DNA of 62,147 nucleotides, filler included, from Vannella sp. (Eukaryota): the NCBI GenBank assembly GCA_023345925.1. It is 7 parts of 7 records of this genome, joined end to end, with 100 filler letters (N's around TTAATTAATTAA, not from the genome) between each part and the next. Parts side by side here need not be neighbours in the genome. Positions count along the whole stretch, not along the records: positions 6,697 to 14,479 come from JAJQQN010000288.1; 6 more parts are not named here. One strand, given 5' to 3'. Below, in pieces: positions 1,072 to 58,113 of this stretch. A model generated the notes under the pieces. That model saw only the letters and a list, made by a program, of their open reading frames with translations. It was not told the origin of the DNA and ran no database searches. The translations under genes were made by a program, and so were the position numbers. Each line of letters begins with the position of its first letter. Position 1 is the stretch's first letter.

Positions 1072-3544
1072 TCAGTTGAAGAAAAATTCGGTGCCAGCAA
1101 GAGCAAACTGGCTGCGAGATTCGGGATTGTCGATTCGAAAGAAAGCCAATCGTTCTTTGACAGAAAGAAGATCCTTTTCAATAGGCTTGAGGTGATTTCG
1201 AACGTGCTCCTCGGCGGATCCTTGCAAAGGAGAAGCAGACACTATTACAGCCACAACTGAACTGTCCGGAAAATAGTTTGCTACTTTCACAGCCTCCGTG
1301 ACCCAAAGCTGATACTCGTCGGGGGCAATAGATCCAGAATACTCTTTTGCCTGAATCAACAAGATGAAGTTACTGAAAACCGATTCGAAACGGGTGTCAA
1401 TGATGTCCCAGCCTGTTTGACCATCTTCTGCCAGATACAATCCTTGATTTTGGCAGCAATCCTGATAATCAGTCCGTGTTACCAACTTCTTGCCCAGCTG
1501 AGACAGCTCAGCGCAGTGCAGAGATTCCAGAATGGATTGAGAAAGCCCGAACTCGTAGTCCCATAGTGATGGAGTAGGAATAGACGTCAAGCCAGGGAAA
1601 ATAGTCTTAAAAGATACATTTTCTTTGAGATGACGGATGCCATTGGCACGTAGAAGAAGGACCATCCCAGTTAGTAATACGAAACGTTGATTTCTTGCTC
1701 CTGTGCACAGCGCTGCCTTTGTTTCCACCAAGCCAAAGGGCTCGAAGTTTTTTAACACCTGGAGAGCGGGATGTTTTTGAAGGCATGATTGAGAGAGGGC
1801 TTTGACCAAAGGGATCGCCATTTTGGGCGCAAATCCAACCATAGGACGTTCCCAGCCGAGAACGCAACCAAGTCTCCGGAGTTCATAGAGAGCCGGGCAT
1901 TCGGGTGCTGCTGTTCGGAGTAAGCTCGAGTAACAGACGCTTGCAAGAAAGTCCGATTCCATAAGAGGAGATTGAGAGTTACATACTCCTTTCGTGTAGA
2001 GAAGATTGCTCAGGACAACACAAAGGTACTGACAAACACCAGAGACTTCGGCTTGCTCGAATCTTTGGTCACTACAGACTTCTTCCAGAAGGCTGATCAG
2101 CCTTGGCACAAGGAAAGGCACCACTCCTAAGTACTCAAGAAGATCTCGAAAAGCTCTACTATCAAGCATGCGACTCAGCTTTGGGGGAAACTTCAATTCC
2201 TTCGCCTGAAGGAATTCAATAACTGATTTTGGAGAGAAAGGCAACAGACTGATGTACTCGGTCCGGAAATAACTGTTTTCGAGGCTGTAGGGAACTGAGC
2301 CAGTGACCAAAATGGACAGAATGATGTTATGACAAGCGCACAGCTCTCTAGTTTCACTACTTAGTCGAGCGTATAGGTCCTTCACAAATGCCTCTCCGTT
2401 CGCCGATTTAGAATTTACGGTGTTGGAGTTCCATTCGTACTGTCCCACTTCCTCTTCATATCTTTCTGCAAGAAGGTGGGGCTCGTCGATGTGGATGAGC
2501 AAAAGCGTTTTTTCGGTGGGAGCTTCAAGCAGCTGAACTAAGGTTGTCACCGCTTCCTCTGTCTCGAAAAGCATCCATTCTTGTTCTGAAAGCCTACAAT
2601 CGCCTCTTGTAGTGGCCCAGGTCCCCAGACATCGGGCCAGTAGGCGATTAACGAGTGTTTTCTTCACGGCCTCATTCAATGGGAGTGAGTTCTTGACCAA
2701 CTCTCCTTCCTTATCAGTCACAGAGTCATGTCTCCCAAGTGCACTGCAGTTTAGCCAGCAGTATCGACCTCTTTCCATTCCATGCAATACCTCTGTTTGG
2801 TGAGGGCTGAACTTGTTCCTGGGAAGTGTGAGGATTTCAAGGAAAGCGGCACTGCCGAATGTTGTTTTCCCCATCCCACTCATGTTGTTGCAGTAGATGA
2901 TTGGATACTTTTGGGAGTCTGCCGGATTATTAATCCAATTCCATTGCTCCGCTATTTTCTCGAAGAGCGAGAGATACTCCTCCTCCCGTGGGATCAAGGA
3001 TTCTGGGTTCACTTGGGTTGCAGATTTCCCTGGAATGGTTTCTTGCGAATGTTCATCAAATGATCTACGGCCAGTCTCAACGACTGTAACCTGTCAGGGA
3101 GTACAAAGAAGTGGTTGGAAACAAACCTTTCCTTGCGCCATCGTTTGGAAGTCGTTTTGGTGTGGGACCTATTCCGTCCATGGATGTTGTTCTGTTTCGC
3201 TTTCTGTTTAAACAAGTTAGAATGAGTTCCAGGAAGAAATGGAGGCGAGTCGGTCTCCTCACCCTCCCGCTTCGCACTGATCTTCGCCCCCTCCGTCTGA
3301 TGAAGGACCTTCCCTGTTTCAGGCAAACACTCATCAGATCAAATAACAATGTAAAGCAAACAAGAAGGACCTACGCTTCATCATGAGGCATGGGCTTCGA
3401 AGAAGGCGGAACAAAAAATGAAAGGAGGAGCTTTAGAGCTTGCTGCTTCCTGTCCACGAGTTCCTGGTATTTAGAGGAACAGAACTGACATCTTTTGCAA
3501 GCGGTACGAGCCAGAGACTTTGCATTTACCTGGTTCGGGTTCAT
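1072..3544 (-). CDS. Crinkler (CR)-like protein: P-loop NTPase plus C-terminal PD-(D/E)xK restriction-endonuclease-like domain; 5' exons uncertain
   Basis: Long exon 3090-1072 with Walker A MSGMGKTT, Walker B LLIHIDE and C-terminal GWDII...LLIQAK. The ORF-track start is a GTG; the frame stays open to a CAG acceptor at 3091-3093, with a likely 36-nt intron (3126-3091). Start near 3544 is a guess. Confidence 0.65.
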
Positions 3545-4353: not shown

Positions 4354-5163
4354 TGTCGTGTGACAGGAAAATACTGAGGTGCAGCTCATAATTCATGCAA
4401 TCTCAAGTCAACACTCACATTCGGCACTAAAATACCGGTTATCTTCCATAACTTACAGGGTTATGACAGTCACCTCATCATCAAGGCATACAATGCTCAA
4501 GGTGATAGAAAAGACAGAACCTCCCTTATTCCCCGTAATTCGGAGAAGTTCCTCACATTCACAATTGGTAGATTCTCCTTCATCGATTCAAATCAGTTTC
4601 TATCCTCATCACTGGAGGGACTAGTCAGCACTCTCTCCAGTAAAACTACCGATTTCAGCAAGTATATCAAGGGTTTTATCCAGGATGTGATAAAATCCAC
4701 TGATTCACACCAGGAATCACACAATTTCTCAACTTTATCGAATCTTTTGTCTCAAATACCAACGATGAGCCAACACGATTCATGGAAAAGCCCCTCCTAC
4801 AGCTACTAAAACAACTTACTCAAACAACGAACACCAGCTTTCTCATTGAACCTCTCCAGGAGACTTCTCGATACTCTTCAGAATAACGGCACTGATTTCA
4901 GTCAATTCACCTACATGAACGGTTCTATCTTCAAGTCCAGCAACAAAGACAATCACCGTCACTACCAGAAGCTCCTAATCTCCAAAGGTGTTTATCCGTA
5001 CAAACTCACAGGTCAGGATTTCGATCATCTACCAGCACAAGAGCATTTTGACAGTGATTACAATAAAGCTCAGGAAGTATACAAATCCTTTGGCTGCAAG
5101 AGTTTCAGAGATTATCACGATCTCTATCTCACTACGGACGTTCTACTCCTAGCAGATGTTTGA
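4351..5163 (+). mobile_element. Degraded Polinton/Maverick (adintovirus-like) protein-primed DNA polymerase B fragment (endonuclease VII-like motif plus exonuclease region)
   Basis: Reads HCRVTGKY*GAAHNSCNL...IPVIFHNLQGYDSHLII...EKFLTF...FIDSNQFLSSSLEGLV...KGVYPY...DYHDLYLTTDVLLLADV; stops at 4375 and 4807; truncated at both ends; more AT-rich than host genes. Confidence 0.85.
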
Positions 5164-5825: not shown

Positions 5826-6596
5826 TTACAAGACCGGCATCGCTATCTTGTGGAAGAAGCCCTCCTCTTTTCTGGATCGAATGCGAATCTTCAGTTCGAC
5901 GAGAATGACTCCCAACAAGACCAGCAGAATGGCTCCAGCCACGAATCCTAAGGAAACCCACGACAGAGTGTTGCTTGGTTTAGGTCCTCCACAGGGGTCT
6001 TCGGTTCTTCCTGTGATGAGAAGTGCAAAGTTCGTGAGATGTCCAGTCTGGCCGCACAATTGGCTGTCCTTTCGAATGGAAGACAAGCAGCGGTCTTCAC
6101 ATCTCCACTTTGACTTGAGCTCGTCATAATAGCTCAAACACAAGTTCTCGTTCTTCTTTGTATCATTGGGAGGAGAAAGGCAGATGGTCAGGGGAGTGTC
6201 CAACTGGGTGATGGACTGGCCCTCCGCATTCACAAGAGTAATGTTCAGAATTGTGCTTGCCAGCAGCTGATCAGGGAATTGCGCGGGCTCAGCAATCACA
6301 TAGGCCACTGTCAAGGTGGTGTTCAGCTCATTGCTCAAGTCGGGGGGGACTGCCAAACTTCCCACCACTGCTCCCTCTGTAGAGTTTGGAAGCTCCACAA
6401 ATCCAATCCTTGAGGGAGTAGAGTCAGTGGCGTTGTTCAGAATAATCTCCACTTGGACAACTTGGGGAGCTGGGGAAGAGCTCGCCGTCACTGTTGAACG
6501 ATCAAGTGACGCACTTGGAGTCGCGTTGTTTGTCTCAGAGGGCCCAAAATTGGGAATGAAATCAGCGCGAGATGTTGAAGAGAAAGTAAAAGACAC
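5826..6596 (-). CDS. Single-pass membrane protein with a GAIN/GPS-like domain (5' end cut by contig break)
   Basis: Ser/Thr-rich stalk, then C..YYDE...W.CED.C...CGQTGHLTNFALL (GPS motif with H-L-T site), then one TM helix and a short basic tail. Confidence 0.75.
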   Translation of the reverse strand: MSFTFSSTSRADFIPNFGPSETNNATPSASLDRSTVTASSSPAPQVVQVEIILNNATDSTPSRIGFVELPNSTEGAVVGSLAVPPDLSNELNTTLTVAYVIAEPAQFPDQLLASTILNITLVNAEGQSITQLDTPLTICLSPPNDTKKNENLCLSYYDELKSKWRCEDRCLSSIRKDSQLCGQTGHLTNFALLITGRTEDPCGGPKPSNTLSWVSLGFVAGAILLVLLGVILVELKIRIRSRKEEGFFHKIAMPVL

Positions 6597-6696: not shown

Positions 6697-6959
6697 TTAT
6701 CAAGCCCTTCTTGTCCAAACAGCCCTTCGCATTGACCCCTCACTTGTCGACGAAATCAACGCTTCTTTTGCTGCAATGGATGAATAGACTATCATAAAAG
6801 TCTCTTCTCACCTTTGGCTCATTCCCTCTTCAAGGCATTGCGCAACAAAGATGAAGATGAGATGAAAATGCAGGAATAATTTCTTGGAAAAAGATTGGAG
6901 TCAATCAACATAGATTTTCGTTTGTTTTTGGTGTGCACAACTCGTCTCTCTTCGTTGTG

Positions 6960-7528
6960 ATGCCGAAGAGAGCGAAGTATGAAGCCACCTCTGCATCACG
7001 TTCTTGCTCTCCGGCTTTGAAAAGACGGAGGACGGGAACTACGGATCCTGTTTCGGCGAATGAACTCGACAAATCAGCCGATGGGCAGCGAGGCGTCCGT
7101 AATTCAGTTGTACGCACGAAGCCTTCATACTCTGTTGAACGTTCCTTGGAAAGCAAGTAGCTGCGCTTGTTTTGAGTGGGTACTAACCTCCTCCTCAGTC
7201 CGAAAAGTCACCGGCCATCAGATTCAAGTTTTTGGCGAGGAGGTGTTGTTCCTTCGCGGCCAGCTTGTTCTACCTCGATGGGTCTCAGTTATCGTGCCTT
7301 TTTATATTGGATCCTGGTCTTTGGTTTACTTGCGAGAAGGGAGCGGTAATTGATGCAGGAAGCAATCTAGTTGACAAAGCCAGACTTCACGGGAGAATGC
7401 CGAGTTCTGAGTTTAATGACGTTGAAACCAACCGATTGGAGGGGAGCAGGAAAGAGTGCGTTTCTTTCCAATCATCCCTCATTGGGGAGGAAACTCAATT
7501 CTCCATCTTCAAATGGATAACCTGTTAA
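6960..7528 (+). CDS. Possible small spliced hypothetical gene
   Basis: ATG at 6960 (MPKRAKYEA...), a TACTAAC branch-like site and CAG acceptor near 7181-7198; structure unresolved. Confidence 0.25.
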
Positions 7529-7643
7529 TGGAGGCTGAACCAATTTGTAGGGGAAGGAATCGTGGACAAGGCAAATTTTGCTTTGGACGCAGGAACAGCA
7601 AAACAACTGCCCTTCAGTCATAGTGTCAAGAGCTTTGTATCAA

Positions 7644-8795
7644 TCAAAGGAAGAAACAAGACGCAGAGGATCTTCTTTCACTTCGAAATCTGTTGCGATG
7701 GAGCCCTGATTCCCCCTCTTCCAATCCATTCAGTTTTCTCCGGATTGATTCCTGCATCTCGTGAGCAGTCGGTCATCTCTTCTCACTGCGAGAGCTCACA
7801 TCATTACATCTTCCACCCGCATCAATTAGTGACTCCGCAACCTCGCGGTGGCCCCCATCAACAGCATAATCTAAAGACGTCTGTTGCCAGTCAGCCCCTC
7901 CCGTTACTCAATAGGTTAGTGAGGGGCTGACTTACCCACTGAAGCATCTCAGAATCTCTTCCTCTGTATCTGACTACTTACTGCCTAAGTTACTCTTTTG
8001 GTGAGTGTGGCGCCTCTTTCGGGAGATGACTCACAAGCTAATTGAAGAATGTCACTAATACTGGGAAAAGAGTCAAATACTGATTCCGCCCTTGTGTGGG
8101 AATCACCGTACCTGGGAATAGAGAACTGAGCACCGCTTCACTTACTTCCTAAACCATGTTCACACTTTTCATTGATTGAGAGAGTAGCCTGCTCACTTGA
8201 TGATGATGGACGTGAACGTTGATAGTCCTCAGAGAGAGCAAGTACTTCACAATCTCTTTTTTCCCAGTTGCGGAGGCGCACGTGAGGAATGTCTGAGAAA
8301 TGAATAAGACTTGTTGACGGTGAAGGTCACTTACCCACTAGATGAGCCCTTTCTGTGAGGCCAGAGTCTTTGCTTCCTTTGTCTAAGTGGCCACTCACCA
8401 CCTAAATAGGTCAGAAACATCCACAACCGAAGAGGCAAGGAGAAGAGATTCGCAGCTTACATTCTAAAGTGTGTCTTAGAGAAGACCGAACCTCTTCCCT
8501 GAGACAAGCTGTACTCACCCACTGCAAGCATGCTGTTTAGTAAATGCTGTATTCCGCTCAGGGGAGTGCGGACCTTCTGAAAGGGGGTTTGGTTGAGCTT
8601 CTCACTCGATGAGTCCGCCACTTACAGACTAAAAAGGCCTTTCTGTGAGCGACTCGCCTTTCCATTCCATGGAAGAGCACACACATAGAACACTTCGTTA
8701 AGCTCAAATGGGTTAGCTTGCAAGAAGGAGGCAACCTCCTTCAACTCCCCAGAGAGCACAGCTTTGCCGTGAGCCTCTCTTCGAGTCAACGCCAT
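7644..8795 (-). CDS. Small ankyrin-repeat protein (~141 aa), 14 exons, ten of them single-codon micro-exons; ends in CaaX-like CFFL
   Basis: Exons: 8795-8685; TCT 8628-26; AAG 8576-74; TGG 8521-19; AAT 8463-61; GTG 8401-8399; TGG 8337-35; 8292-8197; GAA 8148-46; CTT 8037-35; GCA 7984-82; TGG 7938-36; 7880-7800; 7751-7644. All introns GT-AG and phase 0. Cores TFLTCASATGKKEIVKYLL and TSLDYAVDGGHREVAESLIDAG fit the ankyrin consensus. Confidence 0.85.
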
Positions 8796-9342
8796 CACAA
8801 AATGATTTCCGCCTAAACATTTTATAAACCTCTCTTAAATAGCATTTGGGGTAGGCTATTGCTCGATTTCGACTTTCAAACCCAGAAATACAAGCCAAAA
8901 TTTTCAAGGAACCCAGAAGTATAAAAAGGCGATTTGCTTCTTGGTCAGTGTTTTCTGCAAGAATCGCTACAAGGCCACGGACGGAGCAAGTGGTTTCCAT
9001 GATGCTCATTTGCCTTGGGGAAAGTCCCCGGATACTAGGGTAGAAAGTACCGTCTGTAAGAGATACACCTCCGTTGCAGCGCTGTTATTGGAGGGCCAAG
9101 ATGCGCAAGCTGAGCCCCGATATCGCGAAGGCGCTGCAACGGGAGAAAGCTCATCGCAGCACAGTCATGTGATTACTGTTGCCCTCCTTTCGAGGAGTTG
9201 ATCCGACTGGAAGTCGTGAGCGGATCGGCAAACATCAACACAACGGGGCTCACTCTGCAGATTCCCACGCATCTTTTTCAGAACAGTGCCCACGTTGATC
9301 AGCGACCCCCGCTGAACAACGTGTGCTTTGATCTGAGCAGAC

Positions 9343-11232
9343 ATGGAGACGCCAGACGAGCCCTTGTTGTCAATAAATCTGTCTTTCACTCGCAGAAGAG
9401 CCCATCTTTCGTTGTCCGTGGTCGGCAACATGGGCTTGCTTACCTTCGATGGTCTGATGTCCATGTCGTGGATGGAGATGGCCCAGTCCCTTCCAGCACC
9501 AAGATCAGCAGCGCAGGTTAAGCGGTCTGGAGAGGAGAATCGCCGCGCCTCGGTGTTTGGAGCGAAGAGGGTTCTGCCCCGTTCGTCGGGACCGATTGAT
9601 GAGACGGTCTCCTTCTCCCAGCAGAGAATGGCCTTGTAAGGTCAAACACTTCTCCCTTTTCATTCTGGGACTAACCAAACGCGGTCTCCTAGGTTCTGCT
9701 CTGAGGAAGAGCTCGACGAGCCGCGTCGAAAGTTAGCAAATGGAATGCTCTTCAGTTTAGAGCACCAGGAAGCACTTGAAAGTCTCACTCTCCTTTATAA
9801 GAATGCCTCAGGAGACCCCTCTAAGGCAGGCGCCTCGTCCCTTCAGAAGAAGGCGTCATTCTCCAAGTTCATCAAGATGAAATCATCTGTCTCTGTCTCA
9901 CGTGGCCCTGTATTAGATGTACGGATGTCTGTATTACCTATCAACATCAACTAACGGTACCCAAGGTGCAAACCTACAAGATTAACTTCCAACTTCCGGA
10001 CGGAATCTCCGCTCCTCTTCGAGAGGAGATGGTGGCGCATCTCTCCCTCCCTTTGGTTTCTGGCAAGGGAAAGTTTTCATGGTACTTGCCAAAGCCTCAT
10101 CCAGCGTATACACTTTCTGTGAACCCATCCTCAGGTTCCTTCAAAAAAGTGAGTTTCTCTCCACCTGGATTCTCTCTCCTCTGAAGCTCACTCCTGTCCC
10201 CAGAAAGGGCCTCAAGAGTTTGATATCTCAGTGACATTCAACTCCAGTCTCTTCCTGGAGGAAATCATCTCCTTGGAGATACCTGGTGAGTCTCACTGTC
10301 ACTCCCTTCTTCCCTTTGCTGACTCGCTCCCAGGAACTGGGCGCTACTTCTTCCTCGTCTCTCTAGAGAGCGAGTTTTCTGTCTTTGGCGAGGATCTGAA
10401 GCACTATGTACGAGGGCGTGGCCAGCGTGAGTGAATCAACGAGACCCAAAGTCAGGCTTAGAGTCTCACGTTACGCGGCAGCTGAGATCCCACCAACTCT
10501 TTCTACCATCAGGAGCTACATGCTTCAATCGGGGGTCATCAAGAACACTCGAATCCTCCTTGACACCAATCTGGATGAGGAAGAGGTCCAAGTCATTCGA
10601 GACAAGCTCAATCGCGGAGTCTTTACCTCATGCCAAACAGCCAACTCTCTTGCGAGAGTGCTCTTAGTGAGTACTAAGACCCTCCAGAAGGCAACTATTC
10701 AGTATATTGACCGCCACCAGGACTGGTTCAACGAACAGAACCCACCCCTTCTACAGCGGCTCTCTGAGAACCAGCTTATGCTCGCTGTGGGAGAGCAGGA
10801 GTTCGTATCCATGTGGGAAGGATTGCAGGAACCTTGCCAGGCCATATTCCGATGGCTCCTGGTCTTCCTAAGTGATGTTCTTCACGAGTCGGCCTCCAAT
10901 CAAGTGACCGTTAAAGAACTTGGTGAGTGAACAGATAGATGTCTGTCAGAGTCAAACTCACAGCCTTCCAGCGACTGTGTTTGGACCAGTTCTCTACAAA
11001 CCAAGAAGTCAAGATGCGAGTCGAAACGAAAAGTTGGCGAGCACTATCGAGCGCTTGGTTGTCTGCGCAATCGAGTACGATCAGAGATTTAGAGGTCTAT
11101 CCAGTCACCTGGTGTTGAGAGACAGCTCGCACTGAGCCATCCATTAGAGCAACAGGTCCCCAAAAGGCATCCGAAAAGTTCAATAGTGACTTGTCTCTCG
11201 CTCTCTCCTCGGCATTGCGCGTTTATCACTAG
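9343..11232 (+). CDS. Multi-exon protein with a divergent C-terminal RhoGAP-like domain (both ends approximate)
   Basis: Spliced frames give SVFGEDL...EIPPTL...DWFNEQNPPLL...IFRWLLVFLSDV...NQVTVKELATVFGPVL, typical of RhoGAP helices. Confidence 0.6.
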
Positions 11233-12360
11233 ATCTTGAGGATCTCCATTTGCTTTCCGTGAGCAATGGCAATCCAGCTGGGGTTTTCAGTGGACCATTG
11301 GAGCTGATTGATCTCTCCTGAAGCGTGATATCCCAGAATTGGCTCCTCAATAGGATTGGGAAGCTCCTTCAGGTCCCAAATGAGAGCTTGTGAGTCATCC
11401 CCGGCTGTGCAGATGTGACAAGAGGAATGGGGAGCCCACGCCACAGCATTGAGAGCTGCCAGTGAGGTGGATTGGATCTCGGCGGTGGGTATCGAAGGAA
11501 CGCGTGTGTCGAGGATGGTGGCTTTGGCAGAGTCCAAAGAGATGGTTGCAAGATAGTGGTCGTCTTGTTTGTTCCAAGCCAGCCGCAGAAGTGGCGAGTT
11601 GTCTGGATTCTCGTAAATGATGGTCGAGTGCTCTAAGCTCCTATTTCTTTGGTGAGCACCTTCATTTAGGGGGGCTGAAGCTACCTACCGAATGTCGAAG
11701 GTTCTCACTGAACCATCTGCGCCAACCGAGGCAAAGGTGTCCTTCTCTCGGCCAAAGGCGATGTCATACACCTCCTTGTCATGAGCAATGAGCTGGGTGA
11801 TGGCCTGTTTGGTCTGTAGTGGTGTTATGAATGACACAAGGGAAGTTGTGCACCAGATAACTAACCTCAACGTTCCAGATAGTGCAAGTTGTGTCAATAC
11901 TGGCGGTGCCGATGATGGCAGGGTCAATTGTGTTCCAGTCGAAGGATGTAAGCGGAGCGCAATGTGTTGATGATGTCTATACATCTCTAGTTAGAATGAC
12001 TTGGCTCTTGCAGAGTCCAGGGCTTACGTTGGTGGTGAGATGTCCTCGGTCAGTGATCTTGTTGTCCTCACCAACAGACCACAAGCGCAGGAAGTCACCA
12101 GTTGTAGCAATGAGATCAGAAGCACCCACAGGACAGTCAGGCCGCCACATAACCTTCGTGGGAGGGTAAGGGTGAGAGAACTCCGCGACTTTCACAAAGC
12201 AATCGTCCTTCTGGTTGAGGTCCACCACCTGCACCATGTTGCTCCGATCCTCAACAAAAGAGCACACAGCTAGCCGATATGGCGTTCCTCTGCTCCAGTT
12301 CAAGGCGTAGATCGACCAAGGTGCGTCATACCGATAGATCTCCCCTGCCGGCCCGCTCAT
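11229..12360 (-). CDS. DCAF7: DCAF7/WDR68/AN11 WD40 protein
   Basis: [75 protein letters not shown] across exons. Confidence 0.93.
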
Positions 12361-12623
12361 CCCTCTGAACGTGTAAATAATGTATTTCGAGTAGTTTGTA
12401 ATGTGTAGCGGCTCTGGGAGAGTGAGGGGGCGATCATCCAGTCCTCCTTATGCCAGGTTGGTCAAGAAGTCAACGGGAATAGACTTTTCGAGGGTGATAT
12501 CGTCCAAGGTGATCTTGATGGGACATGGTTGGCTATTGAGGAACCAGTTGCGACCTTCGTTGGAGATGAGGAAGCTCCCGTGGCTTCCACTGTTCGTTGT
12601 TCCTTGGTAGAACCGTCCGATAG

Positions 12624-14252
12624 ATGGCTGGACATGGTTATCGGTTAAAAGAAACGCATCTCCGTTCTGTACTACAACCACAGGCTGAAGCGGAGCCTCC
12701 GGAGACGCGAAGAGAACCAGAAGCCGATCAACAGAAGCCATCAATAAATGCTCTTCACTCATTATCATCAAAACTATCATTTATTGGGGGCTTGATGGAT
12801 GAGGGACTGGCTGGTAAAGTTGCTGCCCACTCGGCTGCCTTGAAGCTTGCACTCTCTGCAGAGGAGGGGCGATATGTTGTTGCAGCGACAAAGCTGGCTA
12901 AGAATGATGTGGTCTTGACGCAGTACCCATACGCCTGGGCGGTATTCGATCAGTGGAAAGAGTCAACTTGCCGCTTCTGTTTGGGGTTTATTGAGGCTCG
13001 CCCACGCCCCTGTAAACGATGTGAACAAGTATACTACTGCTGTCAAACCTGCCAAAAGGAAGATGGGCGTGAGCATCTCATCCATGAGTGCCAGGTTCTA
13101 GCAGAACTGCTGAAAGTACAACCTGATGGAAAGCCCGCAGTCTGCCCACCCTTTCGCGACGATCTCTTCACTGAGCTGAAACTCTTACTCCGTCTGGTCT
13201 CTAGAAGGCGTGTAGAGCAGCTTTCCCCTGATAGTGACCGCCCAACAGACTTTCTCACCTCGTGGGACCGCGCTCACCACTTTGGAGACTACCTGAGCCT
13301 CATTGGCTCGCCAGAAGCATTCCCTTCTGAAACTAGAGAGAGCATTCGTTACTGGGTAGTCAATTACGCTCAAACAATGGGGGAGTACATCTTCCAGCGG
13401 TCCAATACCACTTATCAGACCAAAGTGGGCCGTCCTGAGTCCTTTGAAGAGCTTGAGGAGATGGTCTGTCGGAACAGATTGAATTCGTTTGCCTATGGGA
13501 ATGGATCTTTTGAGGAACCACAGGGGTTGGGCGTGTTCTTGACCGCGTCCTTCTTTAATCACAGTTGTGCTCCAAACGTCATGCTTAGAACAGTGCCTAC
13601 GGAGTGCGAGGATATCCTCCCAACGACAATGAGTGGTTCTAAGAACCCTCGAGCAAGTCCAGCCGGTCCAATGGTTGTCTTTGTTGCGGCTCAAGAGATC
13701 GCTGAAGGGAATCCTCTCACAATATCTTACTTGGATAACGGCATGACCGAAGCAGGCCTTTTAAGCGACGGAGAATCTGAGGATGAATCCGGAGAGCCAC
13801 TTTCACTAGGATATCGTCAGGAAGAACTGAAGACAAGCTACCTATTCACCTGCAAATGTCACAGATGCATTACCGAAGGGACCAGTTCCATACCCGATAT
13901 GCAAGTGACTGAACCTCAAATTGCAAAAGTGGAGGGTAAAGATGAAGTAGTTGACCCTCTTGAAAGTCATATCCTCTTCAATAGAAGGTCGCCCTTACTC
14001 TCGTTGGGAGAAGGCGAGCCAAAGCTCCTCCAAGAACAGTTCTGGAGTCTGATAGGGACTACTCACTCCATCAAGACCTCCAAAGGGAAGACAAAACTCA
14101 CAATCAAAGGGTTTTCTGTTCAAATGGCACCTGACAACCGCCCAATCCAAATGGCCTTGGTCCACTTATCCGGAAAACCCGATCCCGACCACATTCCCCT
14201 TCAACGCCTTTTGGGTCTTGGAATTTTTGCATCACTGATTGGCACACCGTAA
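12624..14252 (+). CDS. SET and MYND domain (SMYD-like) lysine methyltransferase
   Basis: GRYVVA, MYND CRFC...CKRC...YYCCQTCQ...H..EC, SFFNHSCAPN, LTISY, post-SET YLFTCKCHRC. Confidence 0.88.
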   Translation: MAGHGYRLKETHLRSVLQPQAEAEPPETRREPEADQQKPSINALHSLSSKLSFIGGLMDEGLAGKVAAHSAALKLALSAEEGRYVVAATKLAKNDVVLTQYPYAWAVFDQWKESTCRFCLGFIEARPRPCKRCEQVYYCCQTCQKEDGREHLIHECQVLAELLKVQPDGKPAVCPPFRDDLFTELKLLLRLVSRRRVEQLSPDSDRPTDFLTSWDRAHHFGDYLSLIGSPEAFPSETRESIRYWVVNYAQTMGEYIFQRSNTTYQTKVGRPESFEELEEMVCRNRLNSFAYGNGSFEEPQGLGVFLTASFFNHSCAPNVMLRTVPTECEDILPTTMSGSKNPRASPAGPMVVFVAAQEIAEGNPLTISYLDNGMTEAGLLSDGESEDESGEPLSLGYRQEELKTSYLFTCKCHRCITEGTSSIPDMQVTEPQIAKVEGKDEVVDPLESHILFNRRSPLLSLGEGEPKLLQEQFWSLIGTTHSIKTSKGKTKLTIKGFSVQMAPDNRPIQMALVHLSGKPDPDHIPLQRLLGLGIFASLIGTP

Positions 14253-14378
14253 TTATATTTTCAATTATTTGGTTAAATTCTCCTTTTCTCAACCTTCTGC
14301 CTGCTCAACACAACGAAAATTTTCGTTTTTGCTCGTTCCTTCTGCCACCTGGCTCCTTTTTTTTAACCCTTCTCGGAC

Positions 14379-14479
14379 ATGGTCAGTTCGTGCACTAGGG
14401 AAAAGAGCGCAACTAACTCCCTGTGAAGCCTCCTAAAGAGAAGAAGACCAAGGAACAGATCGCCAAGGCCGCCGCTGCC
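14379..14479 (+). CDS. RPS25: 40S ribosomal protein eS25, 5' fragment
   Basis: ATG, intron 14382-14428, then PPKEKKTKEQIAKAAAA; pyrimidine tract upstream; cut by contig end. Confidence 0.7.
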
Positions 14480-35776: not shown

Positions 35777-36919
35777 TCATTCTGGACTCTCTAAAGGATC
35801 AAAGGGGTTGGGGGATCCTTTGATTAGCGTGAGGAGGCTGGGGGCCTGCTGGTCCCACCAAAACGGAACAGTGACCAATCGAATGTTGTGAGTTTGGCAC
35901 AGTCTGGCCTTCTCCTGGTCACGTAATTGATGAAGTTCTAACTGTCCGAAGGCTGGGATGTCCTGGTAATGATGTTCTCCGTGGAACTCAAAGGCCAAGC
36001 GAAGAGAAGGAATATAAACATCCAATTCTGTGGGACTTCCCGACAAGCGTGACAAGTCGGTATGCAGGAAGTCTTCCATGACTTCCTCTAGTGGGTAGAG
36101 CCTCTTTACAGCTAAGAAGAGTGTACGCTGCTCACACTTCTTACTCTTGGACTCCAACAGCTTCTGGTCCCATTCTCTGTCCGGATAGACGATTCTGAGG
36201 AAGTTGTAGATAGTTCCATACTCTTTCAGGATAGAAGATCCGCCAGTGATTCTTTGGAACTGTCGAGAAGAGATACGGTACCAGTCATCAGCGGTCTGGA
36301 GCTCATGAAGTAATTCGACTTCCTGAGCAAAGCCTATTAAGGCTTCCTGTCTCTTCCAATGACCTCTTGGAGACTTTGAATTCATACCAGACCAATCTTG
36401 ATCCTGGTAGATAGCCTGAAGTACACAGGAGAGGCTATGGGAGTATCTCCTCAGAAGTGATGATCCCCCATTCTCTCGAAATCTTGCTGTTGTGATATCT
36501 AGCCAATCTGAAGGACACTTAACGCCAAGCTGATGGCCTATGTTATCTACGATCAGGCGTTGAGAAGCCTCCTCTTCATAGAAAGCCCGTGGGAGCTTCC
36601 GCCTTGCTTGCACGGTCCAAGTCCGCTCTGGGAGGAGCTCGCGCAGGGCGGTAAAGAAGTCAGGATACATCCGAAGGAGTTGCCTTCCACCATGAAGACG
36701 AATGGTACGCGTAGAGACGCCTGCCCAGTCAGACTCCTCCTTCAAACCGAGGTCAACTTCCAATCGTTGAAGGAAGCGTCTCTGGTTCTCCTTGCTCGCC
36801 CAGAACCCCTTTGGCCGCCTTTCAGCTTGTCCTCCACTTCTCTCACAAGCCAGAGACCTCACCAGGCCTCCCCAAAGTGTCAAACGAGCACCCCGTCCGC
36901 CCCCAAACCCGCCAAACAT
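35777..36919 (-). CDS. Helical-repeat protein with a C-terminal PD-(D/E)xK (Vsr/DUF559/RAP-like) nuclease fold; possible mitochondrial presequence
   Basis: Three ~65-70 aa repeats (P+xxW/Y...DW...GG..LL..Y), then ELDVYIPSLRLAFEFHGEHHY...RDQEKARLC...LVTVPFWWD; Arg-rich N-terminus. Confidence 0.7.
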   Translation of the reverse strand: MFGGFGGGRGARLTLWGGLVRSLACERSGGQAERRPKGFWASKENQRRFLQRLEVDLGLKEESDWAGVSTRTIRLHGGRQLLRMYPDFFTALRELLPERTWTVQARRKLPRAFYEEEASQRLIVDNIGHQLGVKCPSDWLDITTARFRENGGSSLLRRYSHSLSCVLQAIYQDQDWSGMNSKSPRGHWKRQEALIGFAQEVELLHELQTADDWYRISSRQFQRITGGSSILKEYGTIYNFLRIVYPDREWDQKLLESKSKKCEQRTLFLAVKRLYPLEEVMEDFLHTDLSRLSGSPTELDVYIPSLRLAFEFHGEHHYQDIPAFGQLELHQLRDQEKARLCQTHNIRLVTVPFWWDQQAPSLLTLIKGSPNPFDPLESPE

Positions 36920-37108
36920 GAGAGAAATGGCTTCCCTCAACCCTTCAACGCGCACGCATAAGGAAATGTCTCTCCTCCACCAGTCACTGCCCGTTTCCCG
37001 CCACCACACAATGCGAACGCTGCGGGCCTCCTAATCAAGAACCTCCCAATCGACCAAGCTGAGTGCGAGTTCGCCACTTGGCTGTCGCTAGAATGGGAGA
37101 GAGTGCGT

Positions 37109-40563: not shown

Positions 40564-43500
40564 ATGGAGGAAAAGGAGGAGAGGTTGGAGGATCTGGTGG
40601 TGCCTGCAGTTCAGTTGCTCTTCAGCACGATTCTCTCAGAGACAGTGCTTTCTTCAGTTAACATTCAGCTGATGATTGCTTCAGTTGTAGCAGAGGGACA
40701 ACTGGAAGCTCTATTCAATAGAGAGGTGAAGTCACCTTGCTGACAGAACCAAGCAACTGCTGACGACTCAGCTCAGACAGCCTTACAAGTAGCTTGTCGA
40801 ACGCACCGAAATGACTTTGTTCAACTCCTTCTGGAAGCAGGAGCGCTCATTCACCCGACCCACTTGCCTGTTGGTACTCTGATTTTCCTTCTCTTTGACT
40901 TACTCGCGCTGCAGAGAGGGCGCTCGGTTTTGTTTGAAGCTACTGCTGATGCAGCTGATGCGAACTTGAATTGGATGCTCGTTAAAGCTCGTGCCAGCGG
41001 AGCAGGGGTGGAGGGTCTGTACTTGGCCGATTTAGGTTTGAAGAAGATACCTGAGAATCTGAGTTATTGGAGTTCTTTTACAGAGCTGCAGTCTCTGATG
41101 CTTCATGGGAATAATTTACAAAGTATTCCCGCTGCTTTAGTTGCTCTCCGGACTCTCACAACTGTGACACTCTCCGGGAATCCGCTTGGAGAATATCCTG
41201 TTACTCTCCGCTTGTGGGGCAGAGATTTACACGACCATCTGCAAGCTATCTTGATTCGCGCAGAAGAGTTTAGAGATCGCCGCATTGTCCTCATTGGAGA
41301 AGAAGGCGTAGGAAAGTGTATGTTTTTCTCTTCTGCAACACCAATGTCTCTGAATATCACCTAGCAACCCTTTTGAAGTGTCTTCAAGCTCCTCTAGGAA
41401 CAGTCAAGACGGGTACCAACTTGTCGACTGACGGGATAGTCATTGAAACTTTGGCGTTGAATGGCGACCTGAGCAAATCATGGGCGGATTGGGCCAGTGG
41501 ATACTTCGCACCTTCCATTCCCCCAACCTACCATGTGACTGTGTGGGATATGGGAGGGCAAGAGGTATTCTACCCTTCGCATCAATTCTTCTTGACTAGC
41601 GCATGCATTTATGTCGTGGTCTATAACCTGGCCAAGCCCAATTACGAGCGATTAGACTATTGGATGAATCATTTGAGATCCAGTGCCCCAAGAAGCCCGA
41701 TCTTCAGTCCAATAGTGCTGGTAGGGACACACGCAGATTCCTGCTCAGAAGCTGGTTTCATTGCTCATAAGCAAGAGATCAAGCGTCGCTTTCCTTCTGA
41801 TCGTTTCCGAGCGTTGGTTTATGATGTTGCAGTGGATTGCCAGAAGGGCGGCGACGAAGGAGGCATCTCTTCACTCAGGAGAAAGCTATATTCTCTTGCT
41901 TCTAATCAGAGAATCTCTGTGAGACCTTCATGGATTATGTTACAAAAGAAACTATCTCAAATACTGGAGAAAGGACAAAGTTTCTTGAACTGGGCCACTT
42001 TTCTGGATCTTGCAAACCAGTGTCTGGTCAGTAAATCGGAGAGAGACGCTGCGGTTAAGTTTCTGCGCGATACTGGCTCGATTATACATTGCAAAAATCG
42101 TCCTCTGCTCGATAACATTGTTGTTATCGACCCTCAATGGCTGGCCGATTTAATGGCTTGTTTTGTGACTTTTTCCAATCGTTGGGCCAAGTCTGGAATG
42201 ATTTCGCGTCAAGACATCGCCCACGTTCTTCGAAAGTATGAAGATACTATCCATACTGAATTGCTAGCGCTCTTGGAGCGCTTTGGTATCCTCACTCGCC
42301 TTCCATTTCCAGATGAGTCTTATCAGGAGGTGTATATTCCTTCTCTTTTGCCTCTTTCTCCCCCCTATTTGCCTGGGGCTGACTCGATTACGCAGTGGAG
42401 TAAATGCCCAGCGCGGTTGATTGAACATACTAGGACTTACGAGTTCCGCTATCTTCCTGTGGGTTTCTTTGAGCGCCTTCTCATTGGAACGAGCCACTTG
42501 TCTCGGGAATCCTCAATAGCTAGATGGCGCAGTGGGTTTGCTCTTAAATCAGGTGAAGAGAACATTTGTTTGAGTAAATTCCGGCATCGCACCGCTTCAG
42601 AGCTACAAACAGGACGTCCAAATCATCTTTATGCTCTTACAGTTCGAACTAGGATCAATGCAGGGCATTTTATCGAAACAGGAATCAATAACTTGCTCGA
42701 ATCAGTTCTTCAACTTGTGGATACAACCTTGGAAAGCCATTTCTCTGGGCTGGAAGACACTCAGATCTTTCTGACCTGTTCTCACTGCTTGAAGAAAGGC
42801 AATTCCGTTGAAGATTGCTACCTCTTTCTTTATCAAGAATGTGTTGATGCTGTCCGATCTGGCCAACTATTCGTGTATTGCCAAGGCATTAAGTCAGACT
42901 CAAGAGCAGTTTTCGTACCTCATCTTGCACCCGATCTATCTTTTGGAGGCCAGAGTATCATTTGTATGTCCCAGTTAGGCCCCAGAGATACTTGGACAAA
43001 GATTGGAGAAGGAGGCTTTGGAAATGTATTTGTTGCCCAGTTTGAAGGCGTTGATGTCGCCGTCAAGGAGTTAAGAAACGAAGGCGTTGAATCGCTAGCT
43101 GGAGAAAGTGCCTTTTATGAGTTTAGAAAAGAAGTTCAGATGATGAGGTAAGCCTCAGCAGTGATGAGCTCACCCACTAACATTAGATCAGTATCCTAGA
43201 TCATACTAACATTGTTCATTTCATTGGTGTCTCCCTATGCCCGCTTCTTCTCATCTCTGAATTTGTGAAAGGCGGAGATTTGCATCAGATTCTCTCCAAA
43301 TCTGATCATGAACACCCGTTATCTTGGAGCCAGCAGTGTCGTATCGCTTGGGATATTGCAAAGGGAGTAGAATACCTCCAAAACCGGTCTCCTCCAGTCG
43401 TTCATCGGGATTTGAGATCTCCAAATATCTTCGTGAGTATCTGTGGATTGAGGCAAGGTCTGTTTGTAACTCACCACCTAGATTTCATCTTTGGATGTGA

Positions 43501-45056
43501 ATGAGGCCGTGTGCGCTAAAGTGGCTGACTTTGGTTTGAGTACTGTGGTCGCTCCTTTCGTTTTTGGGGCTCTTCCAACTTGGGGATGGCTTGCTCCTGA
43601 GGTGATTGATATTGAAGGCGCCCATTATGACGAGAGGTCTGATATTTATAGCTTCGGAATGGTCCTTTGGGAAATAGTAACCCGTCAATTTCCCTTCAGC
43701 GAGTTTAGCGAGGATGCCAAGTATCTCAATAACGGCTCGACAGATACTTTGGCTATTCGCAGAGATATTGTGCACTCAAACCTACGCCCAACGATACCGC
43801 CAGAATGCAACCCGATGTGGGCCAAGCTAATTGAGCAATGTTGGAACACAAATCCGGCACTCCGCCCGCGATTTGGAACTATTCTGGAAATGCTATTGCA
43901 AGAGATGCCTTCTGATCTTGTTTCAGCGTTGTCTGAACGTGAGATGGAAGAATCAAAACTCATTCCCCCGCCACTCTCAAAGTCATGTTACCGACCAAGC
44001 CAACAGGAACTCATCAGGTCGGCAGAACACACTGAAATGGAATCCCTCCGGCTCATCCCCCTGAACGACGAAGTCTCTTGTCTAGTCATCCACGAAAAAC
44101 GCATTTGGGTTGCCTGCAAGGGAGGTGAGATCATTGTCTTCTCCCTCGAAACGCTGGAATACTCGCCGGAGAGAATTTTCTCGTGGAAAGCGCATAACGA
44201 TCAAATTACTGCGATGGTTGTAGGTTGTGGAAATGACGCTATCGAGTTGTGGACTTCTGGTAGCAAAGGAACCGTCAAATCTTGGCGAATGAGTATCAAT
44301 AATCGTTTGACACCCGCTCGCATGTCTGAAGACTTAGAAAGCACATCTTTCTGCCTCTGGGAAACTCAATTGGGCTCAGAAACGTTCATCGGTGCCATGG
44401 CTGTCGTCCCTGGGACACTCAATTCCGGTGATAACGTTTGGGTAGCAGCAACGGAAGAGGCGCAAATCTACGAATTCTCATTGCAAACGAAAGCCAATAC
44501 CCGCCGATTCGGTCTAGAAGCCAACCTGCCTCCTTTCACGTTGGCTTGTAACAACAACTTTATCTTTGTTGGGTCAAAGGGATCTCTTTTTGTGTATGAC
44601 ATCAACCAAACCTTCATAGGAACTATCGAAATCCACGGGAAAGAGCGAATTCGACACATTCTGGTGTCCCAGCAGCTTTCAGATGATTCCGACTTGTTTC
44701 ATGTTTGGACAGCGGCGGGAAAGCAATTGATTCAAACCACCCTCCAAGGAGGACATCAACTTGCCGTGGTCAAGCAGCTTTCTTTAAACGCGCAAACTAC
44801 CAAAGTAACAGCCATTGGCCTCGTTCAAAGGCTCATCATGGGCGAGCCGAGGTGGAATCTGTGGTCATCCTCGTATGACTATTCTGCACTGATTTGGAAT
44901 ATTGAGAGCGGAAAGGCCTTCTCAGAAGTGGAGATGCCACATCCCAAAGAGTTTCTGACTTGTTTGGTTCAAAGTGCTGATTGTGTGATAGCCGGAAGTT
45001 CTGTTTACAACGGAGACCAATCCTTGGGCTGTTTGCAGATCTTCTGCGTTCATTGA
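40564..45056 (+). CDS. Roco protein kinase (ANK-LRR-Roc-COR-kinase-WD40-like); start approximate
   Basis: ANK TALQVAC...VQLLLEAGA; LRR LMLHGNNLQSIP; Roc IGEEGVGKST, WDMGGQEVFY, LVGTHAD; COR IDPQWLADL; kinase IGEGGFG, HRDLRSPN, DFG, APE; C-terminal propeller. Confidence 0.92.
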
Positions 45057-47276: not shown

Positions 47277-47854
47277 AGGCTAGATTGATTCTCTCTGATC
47301 GCAAAATGTCACAGAAACCCCGCCACTTTCTCTGGCCTTCCTCGGAGTGCACTTCTCGTTAGCGCTGCCAATGGCTCAAGTAAGAGAGAAGACTTGTTTC
47401 ACCAGATCTTGCCTGGGAGCTGCAGCCAGCCGTGGTTAGAGGAAGGAGTTTGGGAAACGCATCTTCTGAACCTCCAAGGGAAAGGAGGCTGGGGACACTC
47501 TGAGCTCTATATCAGCTTGAGAGACCAAATGAATGAAGGCATACGCCTATTGGGTCCTTGGGGAGCTGCCAAATGGGCATTCTGTGATGCCTTTTGGCTT
47601 TCACACTCTCATGCTCTGAGGAGAAGGCGAATCGTTTGCTTTTGGGTGAATGACGAGAGCCAACAGGGTCTTGGTCATCAAACAGAGCCAAGTGAGTCCT
47701 GTGAAGGTGCCTTGGGAAGGATGGATTGGCAACAACAAGTCTTCGCTGGAGGTCTCGAAGGCCTTCTTCCCTGCAACCCTGAAGGCAGGAAAGAAGAGGT
47801 TCCTTCCTTCCCCTTTGAAAGGCTTGCCCCCCTCATTTCCCCCCATTCATTGGA

Positions 47855-48333
47855 ATGCCCTTTGGCTTCCACACGCTCCTCCTCTCCCTCGAAGGGGACC
47901 TTTTGGCTTTTGGATTAAACCAGCGAGGTCAACTCGGTCTCGGTCACAACAATGAGCAACTCACGCCCGCAACGGTTCCCTGGAAGGGCCCTCAGCCGGT
48001 TCAGGTGGACTGTGGAGTGAACCACTCCCTCGTCCTTGACGCGGAGGGCGGTGTGTGGCAGGCTGGTAAATCCCGCTTCTCTGCTTCTCCTCTCACCTTC
48101 GAACGAGTCGCAGAAGTACCTCCCATGACCCTGGTGGCTGCTGGACAGTCTCACAGCGCTGCCCTCGACACCGAAGGCGGCCTTTGGGTGTGGACAAGCG
48201 AGGAAGATCTCTCTTGGGTGCGTTCTCCTCCCCAACGAGTGGAAAGCCTCCCTCCACTCCTCAAGGTGGCTTGCGGAGACAACTTCCTCGTGGCAGAGGC
48301 CGAAGAAGGCCTCTGGGTGTTGGGCGACAACTC
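47855..48333 (+). CDS. RCC1-repeat protein, family copy 1 (3' end cut)
   Basis: HTLLLSLEG.LLAFG.N..GQLGLGH; VAAGQSHSAALD..GGLWVW. Confidence 0.85.
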
Positions 48334-48433
48334 NNNNNNNNNNNNNNNNNNNNNNNNNNNNNNNNNNNNNNNNNNNNTTAATTAATTAANNNNNNNNNNN
48401 NNNNNNNNNNNNNNNNNNNNNNNNNNNNNNNNN
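48334..48433. other. Artificial contig spacer
   Basis: N-run/TTAATTAATTAA/N-run. Confidence 0.97.
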
Positions 48434-55122: not shown

Positions 55123-55221
55123 ACAAGCCGCTGGCACCAACTGAGAGGCAATCAAGGCTGCGCGCTCCAGGCTGCTACAAAATGCCCCTTTTAAAGGATA
55201 TTCAGTTAATCCGTTCATTTC

Positions 55222-56361
55222 ATGCCAATCTGCGACCACACGCTCCTCCTCTCCCTCGAAGGGGGCCTTTTGGCTTTTGGAGACAATAGAAAAGGTCAAC
55301 TCGGTCTCGGTCACCGTCAAGACCAAGAGCTACCTGTGGAGGTCCCCTGGAATGGCCCGCAGCCGGTTCAGGTGGACGGGGGATTCGCGCACTCCCTCGT
55401 TCTTGATGCGGAGGGCGGTGTGTGGGAGGCTGGTCGTTCCCGGTCCCCTCCCCACTCCAGAACTTTTCAGAAAGTGCCGGAGCTACCTTGCATCGCTTTG
55501 GTGGCTGCTGGCGTGTCTCACAGTGCTGCCGTTGACACCGAAGGCGGCCTTTGGGTGTGGACGAGCAGGAAAGATCTCTCCTGGGCGTGTTCTCTTCCCC
55601 AACGAGTTGAAGGTATCCCTCCAATCACCAAGGTAGCTTGTGGTCATAGATTCCTCGTGGCAGAGGCCGAAGAAGGCCTCTGGGTGTTGGGCGACAACTC
55701 CCAAGGGCAACTGGGCCTCGGTCACAACGACAGCGCTCTCAAGCCGACCCTTGTGCAGGTGGAACTCTGTTCTGAAGGACCTTTTCGATGCCTGGCTGCT
55801 CTCTATGAAGGAGTGATCCTCATCGACTCGCAAGGAGGCGTCTTCTCCTCTGGAGATAACTACAATGGCCAACTGGGGCGCTCTTTCAGAGATTATAGGA
55901 AGCTTCAGGAGTTCCTTCAAATCAAGAACATCCCTCCCATGCTTGCAGCCTCCTGCGGAGGTGAACACACTCTCTGTCTGGATGAGAAGGGCGGCGTCTG
56001 GACCTGGGGATGGGGCTTTTACGGACAATTGGGGAACGGATACACAACTAATCGGCGCAATCCCCGCCTGCTTCGTTCGCTAAACGGAATAAGCGCCGTG
56101 ATTGCGGGAGGTTCCCATTCTTTGGTATTTCCAGAAGAAGGCGGCCTGCTGGTCTTCGGATCCAACAAAAAGGGGCAGCTCGGACTCAACCCTAAGGCCA
56201 AGCGAACCATGTTCGGACTCAGTTCCACAACCAGCCGAACTACTCCCAAGCGTTCTCCTCTCCAGCCTGCTCTCCCTCCTTTAGCCACCGTTCACAGCAA
56301 GAATAAGAAGAAGAGTGCCCGCTCTGCATGGCAAGGCACACCAGAGGATAATCAGCCTTGA
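55222..56361 (+). CDS. RCC1-repeat protein, family copy 2 (intact, intronless)
   Basis: Repeated (C/A)G..H(S/T)L.LD..G.V(W/F)..G.N..GQLG blades. Confidence 0.9.
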   Translation: MPICDHTLLLSLEGGLLAFGDNRKGQLGLGHRQDQELPVEVPWNGPQPVQVDGGFAHSLVLDAEGGVWEAGRSRSPPHSRTFQKVPELPCIALVAAGVSHSAAVDTEGGLWVWTSRKDLSWACSLPQRVEGIPPITKVACGHRFLVAEAEEGLWVLGDNSQGQLGLGHNDSALKPTLVQVELCSEGPFRCLAALYEGVILIDSQGGVFSSGDNYNGQLGRSFRDYRKLQEFLQIKNIPPMLAASCGGEHTLCLDEKGGVWTWGWGFYGQLGNGYTTNRRNPRLLRSLNGISAVIAGGSHSLVFPEEGGLLVFGSNKKGQLGLNPKAKRTMFGLSSTTSRTTPKRSPLQPALPPLATVHSKNKKKSARSAWQGTPEDNQP

Positions 56362-56917
56362 CTCAGTTGCTCTTCTGTCGATCAGATGACGAGTGAGTGA
56401 TTTCTCCCATCTCCTGATCACATCTTGATGCTGACAAGTCCACGTATTAATCAAGTAACACCCCGACCCCGTCGGTTGTCAACGGACTACAGCGATTGTC
56501 GGATGGACGAGGGGAGCGAGAATGGAGCAAAGTCAATTGTTAACATCGGCGGATCAACTCGCAAAGAGGCGCCTTCTCTACTGGTTGCAACCTTGTTTAA
56601 CAACGTTAAGTTACTCAAGTCCCTGCGATAGCTTTGCAATCCGCGGCATTGTGGGAAAGGGCCGTTAAATGGGAGAGGGGAACACTTGGAGTTTTCTAGA
56701 GGAAACCTAGTCCGAACATGGCTTGCACGCGGTTGCGACGAGTCAACGTTCTCTGCAAGCGTTCCATCCGACCAGCAAGCCACCTTCGGAGGCCAGCGGA
56801 TGTGGTTTAGTGGGGCCGTGAACTATCTCTTCACGAAGGTCCTGGTTGCAGGTGGTCCCTTGGCCTCTATTCTGAAGCTTCGATCTGAATAAAGCTCCAA
56901 TCTTTTTCATCGTTGGA

Positions 56918-58113
56918 ATGCCCTTGGGCCTGCACACGCTCCTCCTTTCCCTCGAAGGGGGCCTTTTCGCATTTGGATGCAACAGATACGGTCAACTCGG
57001 TCTTGGCCACGAGATCGACCAAGAGCAACCAGTTAGGGTCCCCTGGAATGGCCCGGAGCCGGTTCAGGTGGACTGGGGATGGAAACACTCCCTCGTTCTT
57101 GATGCGGAGGGCGGTGTGTGGGATGCTGGTTGCTCCCGCTCTCCTGCAACTTTCCAGAAGGTGCCGGAGCTACCTTGCATCGCTTTCGTGACTGCTGGCT
57201 TGTCTCACAGCGCTGCCATCGACACCCAAGGCGGCCTTTGGGTGTGGACGAACGAGATCGATCTCTCTTGGGCGCATTCTCTTCCCCAACGAGTGGGAGG
57301 TCTCCCTCCAATCATCAAGGTGACTTGTGGTAAGCAGCTTCTCGTGGCAGAGGCCGAAGAAGGCCTCTGGGTGTTGGGCGACAACTCCCAAGGGCAACTG
57401 GGCCTCGGCCACACCAACAGCGCCCTCCAACCGACCCTTGTCCATGTAGCAGACCGTTCTGAAGGACCTCTTCGATGCCTGGCTGCCCTCTATTTTGGAG
57501 TGATCCTCATCGACTCGCAAGGAGGTGTCTTCTCGGCTGGACACAACCGCTCTGGCCAACTGGGGCGTTCTTCTGAAGGTGTTTATGATTGCAAGCTCCA
57601 GCGAATCATGAACATCATTCCCATGCTTGCAGCCTCCTGCGGATGGGATCACACTCTCTGTCTGGATGAGAACGGCGGGGTCTGGACCTGGGGAATGGGT
57701 GGATATGGGCAATTGGGGAGGGGCAACGCGTTCAATCAGAGCCAACCTGCTCTTCTCCCTTCAAGAAAAGGAATCAGCGCCGTTCTAGCAGGAAAGGACC
57801 ATTCTTTGGCATTCCCCCTCCTTCTCTGGCCGATCCAAAGGACTGCAAAGTGCCTATGCAGGAAGGGGGACTGCTGGTTTTCGGATCCAACTTCTTCGGG
57901 CAACTCGGACTCAACCCCAAGGCAAAGCGAACCATGTTCGGACTCAGTTCCACAACCAACCGAACCACCCCCACGCGTTCTCCTCTCCAGCCTGCTCTCC
58001 CTCCTTTGGCCACCATTCGCAGCAAACAAAAAAGCGCCCGCTCTGCATGGCAAGGCGCTCCAGAGGACTCGACCTTGAACCATCCAGTCTCCAGTAGATC
58101 AGACGAAGAGTGA
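56918..58113 (+). pseudogene. RCC1-repeat family copy 3, frame broken by a 41-nt insertion (57818-57858)
   Basis: Collinear with copy 2; after AFP the homology resumes in another frame (QEGGLLVFGSN...SARSAWQG). Confidence 0.7.

Follow-up and report, generated by a model that had tools for sequence, protein, structure and literature searches.

Can a gene edit the loops of its protein one residue at a time by splicing? The question is raised by an ankyrin gene in the window, by which we mean the whole 62,147-nucleotide stretch of DNA analysed here. The window is assembled from pieces joined by N linkers, and the gene lies in the piece at 6697-14479. As predicted from the DNA, it encodes three ankyrin repeats, with six and four three-base units set into two hairpin loops. 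The ankyrin hairpin belongs to the binding face, and DARPins are randomised there. We modestly favour a reading, drawn from the layout of the gene and from analogy, in which partial skipping of these codon exons would vary the two loops residue by residue.

The minus strand of 7600-8900 holds 15 AG-NNN-GT sites, 10 of which fall into two chains of even spacing: S, K, W, N, V, W in loop 1; and E, L, A, W in loop 2 (Table 1). All ten YAG/NNN/GT units proposed by the sequence-only reading lie where it placed them. Joined to four larger exons, they complete a 14-exon model with one open frame of 141 codons, 10 of them in micro-exons, which bears out the claim of whole sense codons in phase 0. The 13 introns all have GT-AG ends and lie in phase 0, and their sizes (42-61 nt, plus one of 108 nt) are as first described. 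Donors were said to be mostly GTRAG; this stands for nine of the ten units, the exception being the Lys exon, which has the weakest donor (GTCCGC) and a tandem NAGNAG acceptor. Local tandem splice sites are present at both the Lys and Val units.

Table 1. Predicted features of the ankyrin gene; on the minus strand, each begins at its higher coordinate.
Feature	Position	Strand	Evidence
Exon 1, 37 codons from ATG, N-terminal ankyrin-like repeat	8685..8795	-	Open frame, GT donor, phase 0 end
Codon exon TCT (Ser), loop 1	8626..8628	-	TAG/TCT/GTAAGT
Codon exon AAG (Lys), loop 1	8574..8576	-	CAG/AAG/GTCCGC; spacing fits, introns 49 and 52 nt
Codon exon TGG (Trp), loop 1	8519..8521	-	CAG/TGG/GTGAGT
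Codon exon AAT (Asn), loop 1	8461..8463	-	TAG/AAT/GTAAGC
Codon exon GTG (Val), loop 1	8399..8401	-	TAG/GTG/GTGAGT
Codon exon TGG (Trp), last of loop 1	8335..8337	-	TAG/TGG/GTAAGT
Exon 8, 32 codons, ankyrin helix-turn-helix core from Thr of TPLH-like motif	8197..8292	-	Pfam Ank, PDB matches
Codon exon GAA (Glu), loop 2	8146..8148	-	TAG/GAA/GTAAGT
108-nt intron, twice usual size	8038..8145	-	Length
Codon exon CTT (Leu), loop 2	8035..8037	-	TAG/CTT/GTGAGT
Codon exon GCA (Ala), loop 2	7982..7984	-	TAG/GCA/GTAAGT
Codon exon TGG (Trp), last of loop 2	7936..7938	-	CAG/TGG/GTAAGT
Exon 13, 27 codons, third ankyrin core from Thr of TPLH-like motif	7800..7880	-	Pfam Ank; phase 0 best in coding model
Proposed last exon, 35 codons and TGA, no known domain	7644..7751	-	48-nt GT-AG intron, open frame

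Could two ordinary introns, of 392 and 316 nt, contain these units by chance? Direct joining of the large exons does keep the frame, and the product still scores as ankyrin. Yet nine strict YAG-NNN-GTRAG units fall within 7600-8900, whereas 2000 dinucleotide shuffles gave a mean of 0.128 and a maximum of 2. Moreover, the spacing is regular (42-61 nt), and five introns of other window genes, placed by frame continuity, measure only 47, 52, 53, 55, and 122 nt, the same size class as those of the array. Across the 62-kb window the strict pattern occurs 14 times, nine of them inside the ankyrin gene and the other five isolated. A pattern of three units in a row matches the window twice, both times in the ankyrin gene, and never in 100 shuffles. 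The earlier remark that no other gene in the window has a similar array also holds: no further chain of 3-nt units was found elsewhere in the 62 kb, where the ankyrin gene has one copy. A chance origin is extremely improbable, and we are confident that the ten units are real exons.

Ankyrin identity comes from several matches. Residues 3-27 of exon 8 align with positions 6-29 of the Pfam Ank model (E 0.042), and residues 1-22 of exon 13 with positions 4-25 (E 0.066), both weak and below the cut-off. A PDB search with exon 8 (E up to 5) returned 23 sequences; those with names are either ankyrin proteins, namely TRPV3, FEM1B/C, and KANK1, or designed repeat proteins, and designed repeat binders match best. 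Exon 1 has no Pfam match, and its ESM Atlas neighbours with an assigned family are all ankyrin, which serves as a lead only. An ankyrin profile built from repeats of the metagenome locus L173 gave 9.0 bits with all codon exons in, 10.5 with all out, and 12.2 for the best combination; shuffles reached at most 6.0. With weak Pfam matches, the PDB matches, and 9-12 bits, the modelled protein reads as tandem ankyrin repeats of about 33 aa. Scoring all 1024 exon combinations did not separate the isoforms, which are ankyrin either way.

Exons 8 and 13 each open with the Thr of TPLH, which is position 4 of the Pfam Ank model. The arrays therefore fill hairpin loops, in keeping with the original placement between ankyrin cores, with TGG just before that Thr. 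The large exons alone supply 31 residues to repeat 1 and 32 to repeat 2, beside 32-33 in ordinary L173 repeats; with all codon exons in, the repeats are 37 and 36 residues long, and with all skipped, 31 and 32. No signal peptide is evident by eye in the modelled protein. The least certain part of the model is the last exon (7751-7644), which has no Pfam match, a frame not preferred by the coding model, and no independent support.

The same junction recurs in L173:1-3790, a likely fungal locus unrelated to the window gene that encodes NPHP3_N (NACHT-type) plus ankyrin repeats. Its array, in the last ankyrin hairpin, consists of nine codon exons: R, A, W, E, E, W, R, K, C. The exon after the array starts at Ank position 4, the junction of both window arrays, and the exon before it covers 31 repeat residues, as against 31 and 32 in the two window repeats. 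Six of the eight internal introns are 64 nt, and most are near-identical. By its sequence, L173 is a direct look-alike of the truffle nank genes. In another locus, L183, a nine-unit array ends before an exon that looks ankyrin-like by eye and has no Pfam match.

What surrounds the window gene? No effector domain was found for it by Pfam or in flanking frames. On the minus strand of 8800-10450 no P-loop or NACHT frame was seen, and the longest ORF there has no Pfam match, so the ankyrin protein appears to stand alone. On the plus strand, the upstream DNA is occupied by a RhoGAP-like gene (Pfam E 0.05). In a tree of 66 rows and 136 columns, drawn from the top 60 plus labelled matches among 108 of 120 listed, a DCAF7 fragment encoded in the piece that carries the ankyrin gene clusters with a Vannella protein (100/75, not starred). 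From this grouping the host is probably a vannellid-like amoeba, with one gene as the basis.

Relatives are few. Searched against 1.84 billion representatives, exon 1 had one match, P0121 (ENA, a 1699-bp contig). This is a 57-aa read-through of exon 1 into its intron, one residue different from the window's own, and on that comparison P0121 represents either the same organism or a very close one, sampled a second time. Exon 1 scored in none of 14 candidate longer proteins, and exon 8 with its flank in none of 11 candidate homologues. No homologue was found in viral contigs; and the protein and viral-contig searches together found no homologue with a spliced loop, no paralogue, and no intron-less homologue. 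A tblastn search of three exons against all metagenome loci returned only noise among the best 80 lines listed, with exon 13 matches lying beyond these.

These results bear on another alternative: that intron proliferation produced the array as a by-product, introns having entered between codons to no advantage, or that the gene is decaying and is poorly spliced or silent. A sole homologue that is one near-identical sequence fits this, as do the weak ankyrin scores, the single oversized intron with stray splice sites, and a coding-potential model, itself weak, in which phase 0 is best for exons 1 and 13 and not for exons 8 and 14. However, every exon is open in phase 0, both arrays stop at one ankyrin position, as in L173, the helical cores are free of internal introns, and introns that are not clones of one another retain consensus donors. 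We consider decay quite improbable; even decay and chance taken together are improbable.

Other parts of the window hold genes of separate interest. An uninterrupted 673-aa ORF at 1072-3093 (-) has a P-loop-like motif near its start and no Pfam match at E 0.1; by eye, we take it to be a possible NTPase-nuclease fusion. An interrupted frame at 4378-5163 (+), with a weak DNA_pol_B_2 match (E 0.021), is a possible Polinton-like remnant. At 5826-6590 (-) lies a membrane protein without a Pfam match, in which a GPS-like cleavage motif precedes one predicted membrane helix (by eye). A 417-aa ORF at 35777-37030 (-) has internal repeats, a nuclease-like C-terminal motif by eye, and no Pfam match at E 0.1. 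The gene at 40744-45056 (+) is a ROCO-type kinase, in which Pfam identifies ankyrin and LRR, and inspection by eye adds ROC-COR, kinase, and propeller. Also by eye, RCC1-like repeats mark three similar genes, at 47819-48385 (-), 55210-56361 (+), and 56876-58078 (+), which are a probable lineage expansion.

Do such arrays occur elsewhere? Metagenome contigs were scanned for runs of three units with TGG as the last codon; of about 150 stretches, 124 were retrieved, and these gave 123 parsed loci. A varied-codon rule (at least four units, at least three codons, commonest codon under half) selected 62 of the 123 loci; satellites make up most of the remaining 61, among which L160, a HET-linked array, was also placed by this rule. 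The 56 non-duplicate loci contain 958 codons and seven stops, all seven in L149, an irregular satellite. With L149 dropped after inspection and one pattern-forced TGG removed per locus, the remaining 55 loci contain 890 codons and no stops, against 71 expected from position-specific base use; these loci come from other organisms, many are related or from shared datasets, and three very AT-rich ones may be satellites. The lack of stops argues that the units of such arrays are selected as coding exons. Trp appears 67 times among the 890 codons, against 13.9 expected (4.8-fold), and Phe is 2.5-fold over expectation.

Controls, run with a three-unit pattern that resembled this one without being identical to it, gave 20 stretches in viral contigs and about 150 in prokaryotes. 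The varied-codon rule passed 3 of 20 viral loci and 6 of 120 prokaryote loci; in those six prokaryote loci, 6 of the 80 codons are stops. Viral contigs held no match to a two-unit pattern with TGG at its end.

Pfam searches on 18 chosen flanking ORFs gave matches for seven, in L173 (two ORFs), L160, L176, L174, L166, and L182: HET in L160 and L176, NPHP3_N/NACHT in L174, and weak GTPase in L166 and L182. HET, NACHT, and GTPase families beside arrays point to fungi. In most arrays of the fungal type the introns are near-identical, at about 53 or 64-66 nt, and the longest arrays among these other loci reach 30-49 codon exons.

Several of the loci deserve individual mention. Codon-exon arrays lie directly upstream of HET frames in L160:66-1177 (9 units) and L176:1153-3889 (20 units); in L174:234-4718 about 35 codon units come after a NACHT frame. 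One gene family forms the scan's largest class, likely fungal (L166, L182, L181, L202, L194, L214, L216, L218, L154, and L165), with long arrays of about 11-49 strict codon units after the gene; the weak GTPase match is in the first two members, and the others share a motif by eye. L240 and L241, from one contig, are neighbouring parts of one very long array. L223 and L224, also from one contig, show codon blocks repeated within one array, a sign of tandem duplication at the DNA level. Finally, L085 and L104 are short contigs in a bacterial genome bin with varied-codon arrays of 26 and 29 units and 0 and 1 stop, respectively, possibly eukaryotic contamination.

Real exons need not be skipped. 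All ten could be constantly included, the loop instead being changed residue by residue at the DNA level by duplication, loss, or mutation of units between alleles or paralogues. A full GTRAGT donor is present in eight of the ten codon exons and in none of the three large exons, and these stronger donors fit efficient constant inclusion. Exon skipping is uncommon in microbes with short introns. Duplication has left its signs elsewhere, in near-identical introns (L173, pair z up to 16.7) and in the repeated codon blocks of L223 and L224. In the window, the 108-nt intron resembles a lost unit: it splits 55+3+50 at an AAG/GGC/GG site without the donor GT, and may have arisen when loss of a codon exon merged two introns. 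(A second GT-AG stretch of 51 nt, 8111-8061, lies inside this intron; an alternative reading that uses it runs into a stop.)

The window introns, in contrast to those of L173, are not clones of one another (across 78 pairs, z averages 0.72 and peaks at 4.7), which suggests that the array is old, or was built differently from the fungal arrays. Such divergence leaves little room for easy unequal crossing-over, yet the splice sites are still strong. Arrays of 30-49 exons, as in other loci, would be costly if never skipped, and the available text on the truffle case describes it as alternatively spliced. We rate constant inclusion as a genuine possibility, if not the expected outcome.

Partial skipping, the reading we favour, would operate as follows. 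Each intron of about 50 nt would be recognised separately, so that a 3-nt exon would need no exon definition. Skipping would pair a donor with a later acceptor, giving an intron of 96-161 nt for one exon; NEP1, in the window, has a predicted intron of about that size (122 nt). Loop length and sequence would thereby change without a frame shift. The 2^10 exon combinations amount to 960 distinct proteins, and not to the 1024 isoforms of the sequence-only reading, because loop 1 contains two W. The gene would thus yield as many as 960 small binders, differing on the ankyrin binding face. By analogy, their partner might be a foreign protein, microbial or viral; this is a guess.

Counting for splicing-based variation are the truffle precedent, with alternative splicing in ankyrin-repeat NLRs; the excess of strict units over shuffles; intron sizes that match those of other window genes; the start at Ank position 4 after both arrays, shared with the NACHT-type L173; the ankyrin-like exon of L183; and, for arrays in other loci, the stop-free, Trp-rich codons. 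Counting against it are the strong donors of the codon exons; window introns that are not clones; an ankyrin profile that chooses no isoform; searches that found no NACHT or effector domain, no paralogue, and no intron-less homologue; and the fact that the stop-free statistic comes from other organisms, with many of the loci related to each other. The suggestion of an immune-like receptor gained no direct support, the protein being small and no NACHT or effector domain having been found, and an immune role, argued by analogy, seems doubtful.

Together, a probable-amoeba gene, a matching junction in a NACHT-type gene, and dozens of metagenome loci suggest a general, overlooked form of recognition-surface variation in microbial eukaryotes; codon exons are likely missed by standard gene finders and read aligners. 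A bolder proposal, which we think unlikely, is that codon-per-exon arrays are a eukaryote-wide, repeatedly evolved loop diversifier, the amoeba gene being a minimal "loop-DARPin library" against intracellular bacteria or giant viruses. If so, the spliceosome would generate binding loops combinatorially, residue by residue, in ankyrin proteins and in recognition proteins of other kinds, and the amoeba gene would encode hundreds of binders in 1.2 kb of DNA.

How does this layout compare with known systems? DARPins and loop-extended DARPins are synthetic libraries in which the β-hairpin binding face is varied together with helix-1 positions. Variation in the ankyrin β-hairpin would be common to both, whereas the helix-1 positions varied in DARPins lie in constant exons here.

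Schistosome MEGs skip exons in frame. They share with the window gene many short exons, and their diversity is ascribed to alternative splicing. MEG exons are reported to measure 3-81 bp, with introns up to 5 kb and secreted products (10.1101/2023.06.21.545858). By contrast, the array exons of the window gene are all one codon, with introns of about 50 nt, and fall in the loops of a folded repeat domain; the gene thus does not show the MEG combination of mostly micro-exonic coding sequence, long introns, and secretion.

In brown algae, ROCO-LRR and NB-ARC-TPR genes are candidate immune receptors diversified by exon shuffling, one exon encoding one whole repeat, according to the excerpt available (PMC13449251). 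Exon structure matches repeat structure there as it does here, but a window array exon encodes one loop residue instead.

The closest system is that of the truffle. The sequence-only reading knew of no codon-per-exon array; however, the NACHT-ANK (nank) genes of Tuber melanosporum carry dozens of alternatively spliced 3-bp mini-exons, as stated in the available portions of four papers (PMC4986451, PMC3689799, PMC13449251, and PMC9815663, citing Iotti 2012, Fungal Biol 116:261). In those portions, the runs of 3-bp exons in ankyrin-repeat genes are proposed to diversify a recognition domain through splicing. Tandem 3-bp exons in an ankyrin-repeat gene are likewise present here at the DNA level, as ten units in two arrays. 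The truffle genes combine a NACHT domain with dozens of exons, whereas the window gene encodes a stand-alone protein of about 141 aa, with 6+4 codon exons and no NACHT NTPase domain found, in a probable amoeba. In the literature searched (most subscription journals lay outside its scope), no report described codon-sized exon arrays in amoebae, other protists, or NACHT-less ankyrin proteins; in the portions available, such arrays are described for truffle NLRs only, by way of one 2012 paper. The window gene is laid out like the truffle nank system and stands outside the nank family because no NACHT was found; within that literature its lineage, its stand-alone form, and the shared junction are new.
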